From Escherichia coli (GTDB lineage Bacteria > Pseudomonadota > Gammaproteobacteria > Enterobacterales > Enterobacteriaceae), in NCBI RefSeq assembly GCF_024298765.1, contig NZ_CP101210.1: 64,000 nucleotides of DNA; one strand, 5' to 3'. Of the stretch, positions 9,001 through 12,000 are shown piece after piece. Position 1 is the first letter of the stretch. The number at the start of each line of letters is the position of its first letter. The position numbers are program-made.

Positions 9001-12000
9001 GACCAATCGGCCCGTTAATCCGTTTACCGAAGATCGGGTACAGCGCCGAGCGGATGGTGAGCGGCAAATTATAACGATAGCTAAAGTATCCGAGCGCCAT
9101 GCCCATCAGCGCATACATCGACCAGCCGGTTAAGCCGTAGTGAAACAGCGTCCAGACCATCGCCTGACGCGCGGCCTCAATCGTCTGACCCGCGCCTTCC
9201 GGCGGCTGCATATACTGCGTTACCGGTTCGGCTACGGAGAAGAACATCAGGTCGATACCGATCCCGGCAGCAAACAGCATCGCCGCCCAGCTCAGCAGGC
9301 TGAATTCCGGTTTGGATTGTTCTGGCCCGAGCTTCACCGAACCAAAACGCGAACAAGCAATACAGACCACAAAGACAATATAGAGCGTTGCCGCCAGCAG
9401 ATAGTACCAACCGAAGGTTTTAGAAACCCAGTCCAGCGTGCGGCCAATCCACAGGGCCGAGAAGTCGCGAAACAGGATCGTTGTCAGGGAAAACAACAAA
9501 ATCAGTCCGGCGGAAGTGTAAAACACCACCGGATTGATTTTGTCCTTTTCCCTGCTGTGTGAAAGGTCTGTCATCCAGTATCCCCACTGTTATTGTTACC
9601 ATTTAAAATCAAATTCGTAACAATTAAGACACATTTTATATTGAACGTCCAATCAATAACCGCTTTAATAGATAAACAACGCTGATGAATGGAGTGGCGA
9701 AAATGCCCAAATTGGGGATGCAGTCGATCCGGCGCAGACAACTGATCGACGCCACGCTGGAAGCAATAAATGAAGTGGGCATGCACGATGCAACGATCGC
9801 GCAGATCGCCCGCCGTGCAGGCGTTTCTACGGGGATCATCAGCCACTATTTCAGGGACAAAAATGGTCTGCTGGAAGCAACCATGCGCGATATCACCAGT
9901 CAGCTACGTGACGCGGTTTTGAATCGATTACATGCACTTCCGCAGGGCAGTGCAGAGCTGCGATTACAGGCGATTGTTGGTGGAAACTTCGATGAAACCC
10001 AGGTGAGCAGTGCGGCGATGAAAGCCTGGCTGGCCTTCTGGGCCAGCAGTATGCATCAGCCGATGCTCTATCGCTTGCAGCAGGTCAGTAGCCGCCGCTT
10101 ATTGTCGAATCTGGTGAGCGAATTTCGCCGCGAGTTACCGCGCCAACAGGCACAGGAAGCGGGCTACGGCCTTGCCGCGCTGATTGACGGATTATGGCTG
10201 CGCGCGGCACTGAGCGGCAAAGCGCTGGATAAACCTCTCGCACACTCGCTGACCCGTCACTTTATTACTCAGCATTTACCCACCGATTAACCGAGGAAAC
10301 GTGATGTCCCGAATGGCAGAACAGCAGCTTTATATACATGGTGGTTATACCTCCGCCACCAGCGGTCGCACCTTCGAGACCATTAACCCGGCCAACGGTA
10401 ACGTGCTGGCGACCGTGCAGGCCGCCGGGCGTGAGGATGTCGATCGCGCCGTGAAGAGTGCCCAACAAGGGCAAAAAATCTGGGCGGCGATGACCGCTAT
10501 GGAGCGCTCGCGTATTCTGCGTCGGGCCGTTGATATTCTGCGTGAACGCAATGACGAACTCGCAAAACTGGAAACCCTCGACACCGGAAAAGCGTATTCG
10601 GAAACCTCAACCGTCGATATCGTTACCGGTGCGGACGTGCTGGAGTACTACGCCGGGCTGATCCCGTCGCTGGAAGGCAGCCAGATCCCATTGCGTGAGA
10701 CGTCATTTGTTTATACCCGCCGCGAACCGCTGGGCGTAGTGGCAGGGATTGGCGCATGGAACTACCCGATCCAGATTGCCTTGTGGAAATCCGCCCCGGC
10801 GCTGGCGGCAGGCAACGCGATGATTTTCAAACCGAGCGAAGTCACCCCGCTTACCGCGTTAAAGCTGGCCGAAATTTACAGCGAAGCGGGCCTGCCGGAC
10901 GGCGTATTTAACGTGCTGCCGGGCGTAGGTGCGGAAACCGGGCAGTATCTGACCGAGCATCCGGGCATTGCCAAAGTGTCATTTACCGGCGGTGTCGCCA
11001 GCGGCAAAAAAGTGATGGCTAACTCGGCGGCTTCCTCCCTGAAAGAAGTGACCATGGAGCTGGGCGGTAAATCACCGCTGATCGTTTTCGACGATGCGGA
11101 TCTCGATCTCGCCGCTGATATCGCCATGATGGCGAACTTCTTCAGCTCCGGTCAGGTGTGTACCAACGGCACCCGCGTGTTTATTCCGGCGAAATGCAAA
11201 GCCGCATTTGAACAAAAGATTCTGGCTCGCGTTGAGCGCATTCGCGCGGGCGACGTTTTCGATCCGCAAACTAACTTTGGCCCGCTGGTCAGCTTCCCGC
11301 ATCGCGATAACGTGCTGCGTTACATCGCCAAAGGCAAAGAGGAAGGCGCGCGCGTACTGTGCGGCGGCGATGTACTGAAAGGCGATGGCTTCGATAACGG
11401 CGCATGGGTTGCACCGACCGTGTTCACCGATTGCCGCGACGAAATGACCATCGTGCGCGAAGAGATCTTCGGTCCGGTGATGTCGCTTCTCACTTATGAA
11501 TCTGAGGACGAAGTGATTCGCCGCGCCAATGATACCGACTACGGCCTGGCGGCGGGCATCGTGACGGCGGACCTGAACCGCGCGCATCGCGTCATTCATC
11601 AGCTGGAAGCGGGTATTTGCTGGATCAACACCTGGGGCGAATCCCCTGCAGAGATGCCCGTTGGCGGCTACAAACACTCCGGCATTGGTCGCGAGAACGG
11701 CGTGATGACGCTCCAGAGTTACACCCAGGTGAAGTCCATCCAGGTTGAGATGGCTAAATTCCAGTCCATATTCTAACCAGGAGGTTTATTTGCAATTTGA
11801 CTACATCATTATTGGTGCCGGCTCAGCTGGCAACGTTCTCGCTACCCGTCTGACTGAAGATCCGAACACAACCGTGCTGCTGCTTGAAGCAGGCGGCCCG
11901 GACTATCGCTTTGACTTCCGCACCCAGATGCCCGCCGCGCTGGCGTTCCCGTTACAGGGTAAACGCTATAACTGGGCCTATGAGACGGAACCGGAACCGT

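Follow-up and report, generated by a model that had tools for sequence, protein, structure and literature searches.

Where in the spacer between betT and betI does the BetI repressor bind, and about which axis is its operator symmetrical? The question arises from a 128-nt AT-rich region at positions 9575-9702 of a 64-kb stretch of Escherichia coli DNA (hereafter the window), in which the initial annotation had named the inverted repeat TATTGA-N8-TCAATA as a candidate BetI operator. The identities and coordinates of the flanking genes confirmed that this is the divergent betT-betI control region. On the minus strand, betT (7541-9574) is an ORF for a 677-aa choline transporter of the BCCT type, annotated as betT in E. 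coli genomes, and it scored 1315 bits against the NCBIfam BetT subfamily model NF007399 (cutoff 695). On the plus strand, betI (9703-10290) encodes a 195-aa choline-responsive repressor of the TetR family, with 302.6 bits on NF001978 (cutoff 118) and 260.9 bits on TIGR03384 (cutoff 201.3). Downstream of betI lie betB and betA, and all four bet genes exceeded their curated cutoffs.

The ORF finder placed the betI start at 9685, giving a 201-aa ORF, but BetI equivalogs align from residue 7, and the minus-strand CDS of K-12 betI (b0313) ends at 329334, which is window position 9703. Since the family match and the K-12 annotation agree, we took the ATG at 9703 as the true start; the beginning of the protein, MPK(L/V)GM, is kept in all relatives, and a Shine-Dalgarno sequence, GGAG, stands at 9691-9694. 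The spacer corresponds to K-12 MG1655 329335-329462 (K-12 coordinate = 339037 minus window coordinate) with two SNPs, at 9600 and 9679, both outside the operator described below. A 501-bp query matched the listed E. coli genomes with 100% identity and was present in 5180 of 5426 complete genomes. The locus is the well-studied E. coli control region for choline uptake through betT and for betIBA, ordinary and already known.

The proposed repeat is indeed present at 9639-9658 (TATTGAACGTCCAATCAATA), with perfect 6-nt arms at 9639-9644 and 9653-9658. Its exact form occurs once in the window and was matched in 0 of 100 shuffles, although this test was post hoc. When the 128-nt spacer was dinucleotide-shuffled 2000 times, 43% of the shuffles contained one or more perfect 6+6 inverted repeats with arms 0-12 nt apart, and seven inverted repeats of 6 nt or more lie within 201 nt here. 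A second dyad overlaps the first: 9640-9653, ATTGAACGTnCAAT (ATTGAACGTCCAAT), is an imperfect 14-bp palindrome with its axis at 9646/9647, in which six of seven pairs are complementary in E. coli (mismatch A9644/C9649). Palindromes of this length with at least six of seven pairs were found in 27% of the spacer shuffles. Because neither the N8 nor the N4 dyad was significant by this measure, shuffling was dropped as a means of choosing between them. The N8 repeat is real yet statistically unremarkable, and the evidence has to be sought in conservation rather than in symmetry statistics. A search of the whole window for further BetI boxes found 9 matches when up to 3 mismatches were allowed, fewer than the 14.4 expected by chance, and supported no second site. 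Rfam gave no match in 9575-9702, even at E <= 1. Another inverted repeat of 13 nt, 9592-9604 with 9612-9624, was rejected as a regulatory element on the grounds that its left arm is not complementary in relatives.

Column conservation was determined over 63 distinct Enterobacterales sequences upstream of betI. Positions 9640-9653 were invariant in all 63 with the single exception of 9649 (C in 37, T in 24, G in 2), and 13 of the 14 core positions carried 2.0 bits of information; spacer positions such as 9609-9618 and 9671-9682 mostly carried 0.2-0.8 bits, with two above 1 bit. Invariant flanking positions were 9635-9637 (TTT), 9655-9656 and 9658-9659 (AA). Six of the seven pairs of the N4 dyad were complementary in every sequence, and the seventh was so in the 24 that have T at 9649 and thereby a perfect GTTCAAT. 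Upstream of betI, TTGAACGT was found exactly once in all 77 loci with usable upstream DNA, and betT was divergent from betI in all 76 Enterobacterales loci with enough upstream sequence. Compared with the family consensus TTGATTGAAC|GTTCAATCAA, positions 9637-9656 matched at 17 of 20 bases. Three distinct Enterobacterales sequences, including Prodigiosinella, Brenneria salicis and Ewingella, carry TTGATTGAACGTTCAATCAA, a perfect 20-bp palindrome.

The same columns bear on the symmetry first proposed, under which a single BetI dimer would contact TATTGA (9639-9644) and TCAATA (9653-9658) about an axis at 9648/9649. In favor of this arrangement, its arms are perfect in E. coli, where the N4 palindrome is not, and the exact repeat is shared by five further distinct Enterobacterales sequences (Citrobacter amalonaticus, Cedecea and relatives), making 6 of the 63. 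Complementarity was kept at 9639/9658 in 50 and at 9643/9654 in 57 of the 63, the latter pair being lost in Pantoea, Pluralibacter, Mangrovibacter and one Brenneria sequence (6/63); at 9640/9657, however, the bases were complementary in only 6, which argues against an operator built on these arms. Single-dimer operators of the TetR family, such as tetO, have half-site centers 9 bp apart. This is the distance in ATTGA-N4-TCAAT, whereas the N8 form separates its half-site centers by 13 bp, a misfit for one dimer of this family.

The N4 box recurs well beyond the Enterobacterales. Exact ATTGA-N4-TCAAT was present within 130 bp upstream of betI in five of eight distant loci (Proteus, Burkholderia, Pseudoalteromonas, Acinetobacter and Sinorhizobium), with a chance expectation of about 4e-4 per locus by our own estimate. 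Among the other distant loci, Azospirillum had no betI box and Vibrio campbellii had a half-site only. The E. coli core, 50 nt upstream of the betI ATG at 9703, matches 9 of the 10 specified bases. ATTGA and TCAAT pairs spaced by N8 can also be read in Acinetobacter, Sinorhizobium and Proteus, which might seem to favor the wider symmetry; they result, however, from an extra, outer half-site copy, and none of the three lacks the N4 box. The DNase I-footprinted BetI1 site of Ruegeria pomeroyi contains ATTGACG*CGTCAAT and is a reported match to the published betI-box consensus (PMC12442346). The betI box of other Proteobacteria, that of R. pomeroyi BetI1 included (PMC12442346), resembles the E. 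coli site in its ATTGA-N4-TCAAT layout, in its position over the putative betI -35 box and in being bound by a TetR-family BetI. The E. coli box differs in its right half, CCAAT, which has one mismatch, and in that it also serves a second, divergent promoter.

Published work places BetI on this DNA. Genomic SELEX and gel shift identified the betI-betT spacer as the only specific target of BetI (PMC5934670), which agrees with the initial claim that a BetI operator here serves both promoters. The synthetic BetI-repressible promoter PBetI, from the E1-BetI NOT gate of the Cello/Voigt-lab collection, carries a BetI operator, and its primer shares exactly 22 nt with the window, 9636-9657, centered at 9646.5 (PMC7058928). 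The native site and PBetI have this segment in common; the latter is synthetic and unidirectional, with the operator between engineered -35 and -10 elements (PMC7058928). The overlap with the primer, like the family consensus, marks an extended operator of 20-22 bp at 9636-9657 around the core. The initial annotation was right about the place and the function, and its repeat overlaps the known BetI site, the left arm containing the true half-site ATTGA, but it was not right about the dyad: the axis of the proposed repeat is 9648.5, 2 bp to the right of the point that is both the center of the PBetI operator and midway between the two transcription starts. A footprint elsewhere in the spacer, the outcome that was to count against the proposal, is not borne out. 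The proposed repeat arises from a second copy of CAAT after the right half-site (CCAATCAATA): in this CAAT-CAAT duplication the outer copy, which is flank and lies 4 bp past the true partner, provides its right arm.

The arrangement of the promoters gives the same center. The betI start, near 9677, was deduced from the betT 5' end at 9616 and from a separation of 61 bp between the two starts, reportedly established by Lamark et al. in 1996; the midpoint of the two is 9646.5, a value that for betI depends on this reported figure. The betT mRNA 5' end itself, G9616, comes from the T7-betT-F primer for the 'full-length betT transcript' (PMC4067347), mapped to the window. The putative betI promoter has TTGAAC at 9641-9646 (plus strand), within the left half-site and invariant, as its -35 hexamer, 17 bp upstream of a predicted -10 hexamer TTTAAT at 9664-9669, of which T9664, A9667, A9668 and T9669 are kept in 62-63 of the 63 sequences. 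On the minus strand, the predicted betT -35 hexamer TTGGAC (9647-9652), within the right half-site and invariant except at 9649, mirrors the betI -35 hexamer across the dyad axis. Its -10 partner, recognized from the column pattern in relatives, would be TCTTAA at 9624-9629 with a 17-bp spacer in E. coli; relatives have TATTAA or TATATT, the latter at the same columns in the Yersinia/Rahnella group. Each -35 candidate thus stands 17 bp from a conserved -10-like hexamer, and the betT 5' end at 9616 fits, whereas a consensus promoter and terminator scan of 9450-9850 returned no sites and no sigma-70-like promoter. Neither -10 hexamer has the A that is usual at its second position. Since the repeat is upstream of the betT and betI starts alike, it would be part of neither mRNA.

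We conclude that 9640-9653, within 9636-9657, is very likely the single operator for BetI in the E. coli bet regulon, with half-sites that would double as both -35 boxes. Our confidence is equally high, for the account taken as a whole, that the operator consists of a 14-bp core, with halves ATTGAAC and GTCCAAT, inside a symmetric element of about 20-22 bp, that this is the local form of a family-wide betI box, and that one dimer acts on it at both promoters. In this account the two promoters stand back to back, and their abutting -35 hexamers, TTGAAC for betIBA and TTGGAC for betT, would be formed by the half-sites. One TetR-family BetI dimer on the palindrome would then cover both -35 boxes, blocking the two promoters at once and repressing them together, and choline would relieve this repression. 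The present analysis itself shows which genes these are, what the sequence is, how it is conserved, that the N4 box recurs and that the PBetI operator and the pair of starts have matching centers; that BetI binds, which hexamers form the promoters and how occlusion works are drawn from the literature or by inference. Beside this reading, a dimer seated on the N8 arms seems to us very improbable.

Core conservation alone cannot separate constraint on an operator from constraint on a -35 element. We therefore weighed whether the palindrome might be no more than a by-product of two -35 hexamers lying end to end, or a repeat that arose by chance in AT-rich DNA, with the repressor binding elsewhere in the spacer. 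TTGAAC and TTGGAC are -35-like, so that RNA polymerase alone would conserve them, and similar repeats are common in shuffled spacers, as the frequencies given above for both the 6+6 and the 14-bp classes illustrate. Yet A9640 and T9653, outside the hexamers, are invariant too, and the same box lies upstream of betI in species where no BetT-like gene was found divergent from it, namely Burkholderia, Pseudoalteromonas and Sinorhizobium, three of the five distant taxa with an exact match. Furthermore, the PBetI primer of the E1-BetI gate contains no native bet DNA apart from the 22-nt segment (PMC7058928), SELEX and gel shift put BetI on this very spacer (PMC5934670), and the footprinted BetI1 site has the same box (PMC12442346). 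Taken together, these data make a by-product origin the least credible of the explanations considered, and we regard it as extremely improbable.

The single operator proposed here is that of E. coli K-12, as reported by Lamark et al. and by Rokenes et al. in 1996: the locus is the same, its promoters diverge and overlap in part, and a single BetI site is reported to cover the two -35 boxes. Biologically nothing is different, and the distinction between an N8 symmetry and an N4 palindrome is descriptive only. The arrangement also recalls TetR/tetO and QacR/IR1, which share with it a palindromic operator, a helix-turn-helix dimer of the TetR family and, as in tetR/tetA, overlap with divergent promoter elements. 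The PDB contained no BetI-DNA complex, the best match being the unliganded homologue 3e7q (E = 2.3e-15), and both binding by one dimer, as in TetR, and binding by two, as in QacR, are candidate modes.

An extended operator, on which two dimers, offset from each other as QacR-type TetR repressors are when they bind a long inverted repeat in pairs, or one dimer with additional flank contacts, would use both the inner CCAAT and the outer TCAAT, would make the right arm of the N8 repeat functional after all. Among the 63 sequences, 57 have C at 9654 and all have A at 9655 and 9656, so that this CAA is conserved despite its location in the betI promoter spacer. Half-site copies shifted by 4 bp lie to the left in Proteus and Burkholderia and to the right in E. 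coli; Acinetobacter and Sinorhizobium have them on either side, and in Acinetobacter the site is a perfect 26-bp palindrome about the same axis. Against such an arrangement, the E. coli BetI footprint of Rokenes et al. in 1996 is said to span 21 nt, with only one stable complex. The left flank in E. coli is without an outer copy, having TAT and not TTG, T9657 is A in 56 of the 63 relatives, and conservation of the flank could reflect A-tract or promoter-spacer effects. A precedent does exist in R. pomeroyi BetI2, which uses two overlapping palindromes with a shared flank in a choline-dependent manner (PMC12442346). On balance we consider an extended operator of this kind unlikely for E. coli. 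As an observation in its own right, the conserved CAA, like the shifted half-site copies of several lineages, would be compatible with an additional contact or another dimer.

A single BetI site over both -35 boxes of the bet control region, as well as its use in synthetic biology, has been described since 1996, and in this respect our results add little that is new. They do correct the annotation, in which the N4 palindrome 9640-9653 (extended, 9636-9657) should replace TATTGA-N8-TCAATA as the operator, and the case illustrates that perfect arms in one genome can mislead where a half-site is tandemly duplicated. Concerning the response to choline, E. coli BetI is reported to stay on its DNA (PMC5934670), in contrast to Acinetobacter baylyi BetI, which is reported to be released (PMC7876524), and how choline derepresses without release of BetI is a question already recognized in the literature. 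It is conceivable, though we give the idea very little credence, that both registers of the right half-site are used, with N4 pairing of ATTGA and CCAAT in the absence of choline and a shift to the outer TCAAT, or a second dimer, in its presence; this would parallel the overlapping palindromes of R. pomeroyi BetI2 (PMC12442346). If so, one -35 box would be freed while BetI stays on the DNA, which would explain a long-standing puzzle, how choline can induce the bet genes without releasing E. coli BetI from its operator.

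The AT-rich betT-betI intergenic spacer (9575–9702) separates betT, on the minus strand at 7541–9574 (a 677-aa ORF scoring 1315 bits against the NCBIfam BetT subfamily model), from betI, which is followed on its 3' side by betB and betA, in that order; the betI, betB and betA products score far above the curated cutoffs of their family models. The ORF finder puts the betI start at 9685. Since the alignments to the family models begin at residue 7, BetI of K-12 is annotated as 195 aa and the MPK(L/V)GM start is kept in all relatives compared, we assign the start to ATG 9703, served by the preceding GGAG at 9691–9694. 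The in-frame ATG 18 nt 5' of this start (9685–9702), from which a mechanically called ORF has 201 rather than 195 aa, is also kept in Enterobacter and Klebsiella relatives (CTGATGAATGGAG).

A 501-bp query round the spacer matched 5180 of 5426 complete genomes, with 100% identity to E. coli genomes among the matches listed, and the spacer differs from that of K-12 MG1655 at 9600 and 9679 only (K-12 coordinate = 339037 minus window coordinate). Matches to the control region were also found at ten places on plasmids of complete E. coli genomes. In the plasmid collection, betI copies with 97–99% protein identity to the query (H11, H13 and H14) lie on E. coli plasmids of bona fide size, such as NZ_AP023209.1 (68.5 kb); several Mb-sized "plasmid" records there are evidently chromosomes or chromids.

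The initial annotation had proposed an inverted repeat, TATTGA-N8-TCAATA, as a candidate BetI operator. The sequence at 9639–9658, TATTGAACGTCCAATCAATA, matches this pattern exactly and at the stated place, and with the betI start at 9703 the spacer has the limits given in that annotation. A second dyad, ATTGAAC-GTCCAAT (9640–9653), pairs at six of seven positions about an axis between 9646 and 9647. Both dyads use the same left half-site, ATTGA. On the right, in CCAAT-CAAT-A, CAAT is duplicated in tandem: the inner copy yields the N4 palindrome, and the N8 repeat comes from the outer one. Symmetry alone is almost no evidence for either dyad. Perfect 6+6 inverted repeats (spacer 0–12) arose, once or more, in 43% of 2000 dinucleotide-preserving shuffles of the spacer, the N4-type 14-bp palindrome class appeared in 27%, and 201 nt here hold seven inverted repeats of 6 nt or longer; the exact 12-base N8 pattern is unique in the window, by a post hoc test. 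Another inverted repeat, of 13 nt (9592–9604 and 9612–9624, ATTGTTACCATTT and AATTCGTAACAAT, 85% complementary with a 7-nt gap), takes in both the -10/start region of betT and its 5' leader; TGTTA motifs occur within it. Its complementarity is specific to E. coli, because the left arm is TTTGTAAC in most relatives, and a link to the reported ArcA control is possible.

Conservation distinguishes the two dyads. A BetI protein scan with one genome per species gave 80 Enterobacterales loci (BetI identity 94% down to 63%), and betT was divergent in all 76 with enough upstream sequence. TTGAACGT occurs exactly once 5' of betI in 77 of 77 loci with usable upstream DNA. Among 63 distinct sequences, 9640–9653 is invariant save at 9649 (C in 37, T in 24, G in 2). 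Six of the seven pairs about 9646/9647 are complementary in 63/63, and the seventh pairs wherever 9649 is T, giving the perfect ATTGAACGTTCAAT of Yersinia, Rahnella, Brenneria, Cedecea and others. The flanks are likewise symmetric about 9646.5, with TTT at 9635–9637 opposite AA at 9655–9656 and 9658–9659, and a perfect 20-bp palindrome, TTGATTGAACGTTCAATCAA, occurs in three distinct sequences, among them those of Prodigiosinella, Brenneria salicis and Ewingella. As for the N8 pairing, 9640/9657 is complementary in 6/63, mostly broken because 9657, T in E. coli, is A in 56 of the 63; 9643/9654 is broken in Pantoea, Pluralibacter, Mangrovibacter and one Brenneria sequence; and the exact N8 repeat occurs in six of the 63. 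The proposed location and function stand, but the arms were wrongly paired: of the two CAAT copies the proposed right arm takes the outer one, and the true axis lies 2 bp to the left.

Despite their promoter-spacer position, the AT-rich operator flanks (9634–9639 and 9654–9661; mostly TTTT.. and ..CAAAAA in relatives) show hardly any variation, which may reflect BetI contacts, DNA bending or osmotic control of the promoters. The operator lies 60–63 nt 5' of the betI start codon in the window and in loci L001–L059, and 98–189 nt in L060–L080 (Yersinia, Rahnella, Brenneria, Ewingella and others), which implies a long betI leader in the latter, several of whose betI genes have a GTG start.

The large replicons of the plasmid collection supplied distant betI loci, and eight organisms were tabulated. 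An exact ATTGA-N4-TCAAT box lies 5' of betI in Proteus (ATTGAATGTTCAAT), Burkholderia (ATTGAACGATCAAT), Pseudoalteromonas (ATTGAACGGTCAAT), Acinetobacter baumannii (ATTGAACGTTCAAT in a perfect 26-bp palindrome, TTATTGATTGAACGTTCAATCAATAA) and the betICBA locus of Sinorhizobium meliloti (ATTGATGGATCAAT). A plasmid of Pseudomonas silvicola has one mismatch (ATTGAACGTGCAAT), Vibrio campbellii has two and retains a half-site only, and no such box was found 5' of betI in Azospirillum. No divergent BetT-like gene was found 5' of betI in the Burkholderia, Pseudoalteromonas and Sinorhizobium loci, so the box tracks betI itself rather than paired -35 hexamers. In several lineages an outer half-site copy is shifted by 4 bp on one or both sides, which accounts for N8 readings. 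E. coli 9637–9656 agrees at 17 of 20 positions with the family consensus, TTGATTGAAC-GTTCAATCAA. An intergenic match 5' of ecpR (39694–39707, ATTGAACGTTATAT) has two mismatches to the operator core, neither of them in its left half, ATTGAACGT, and has TATATTGCCAATAAC directly after it; it is probably due to chance, since the window holds 9 matches at up to three mismatches against 14.4 expected and SELEX gave a single BetI target.

The two transcripts are said, in work by Lamark et al. in 1996, to start 61 bp apart, and BetI reportedly protects 21 nt over both -35 boxes, at a site unchanged by choline (Rokenes et al., also 1996). With betT starting at G9616, that separation would place the betI start at about 9677 and the midpoint at 9646.5, the N4 axis. 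G9616 is where the template described as "full-length betT transcript" begins in the window (PMC4067347). An RNA role for the N8 repeat was excluded, as it lies 5' of both transcription starts; Rfam gave no match in 9575–9702. Sub-threshold matches to miRNA-precursor hairpin models at 9471–9566 on the minus strand (betT codons ~3–35; 20–21 bits, E 0.17–0.39) coincide with a betT coding stem-loop reported to carry tandem RNase III cleavage sites (PMC4067347).

The element is the textbook BetI operator, already known. By genomic SELEX and gel shifts, the betI-betT spacer is the only specific target of BetI, which remains bound in the presence of choline (PMC5934670). The one speculative reading left, in which choline would move BetI between the inner right half-site and the outer one, is unlikely. 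The promoter primer of an E1-BetI gate (PMC7058928) has exactly 22 nt in common with the window, 9636–9657, centred on 9646.5, and the region that R. pomeroyi BetI1 protects in DNase I footprinting holds the perfect palindrome ATTGACG-CGTCAAT (PMC12442346).

A consensus promoter scan found no promoter in this region. The putative betI promoter has -35 TTGAAC (9641–9646) and -10 TTTAAT (9664–9669) on the plus strand, and that of betT has -35 TTGGAC (9652 to 9647) and -10 TCTTAA (9629 to 9624) on the minus strand, each with a 17-bp spacer; both -10 hexamers are non-canonical, and the betT -10 columns read TATTAA or TATATT in relatives. The N4 pairing sets the centres of the half-sites 9 bp from each other, a spacing shared with TetR-type operators that take a single dimer; the N8 pairing would set them 13 bp apart. 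The conserved CAA at 9654–9656 leaves some room for an extra BetI contact or a second dimer, and a PDB search found no BetI-DNA structure. The abutting betI and betT -35 hexamers would jointly form the N4 palindrome of the operator, so that a single TetR-family dimer bound there would shut sigma-70 region 4 out of both promoters together.
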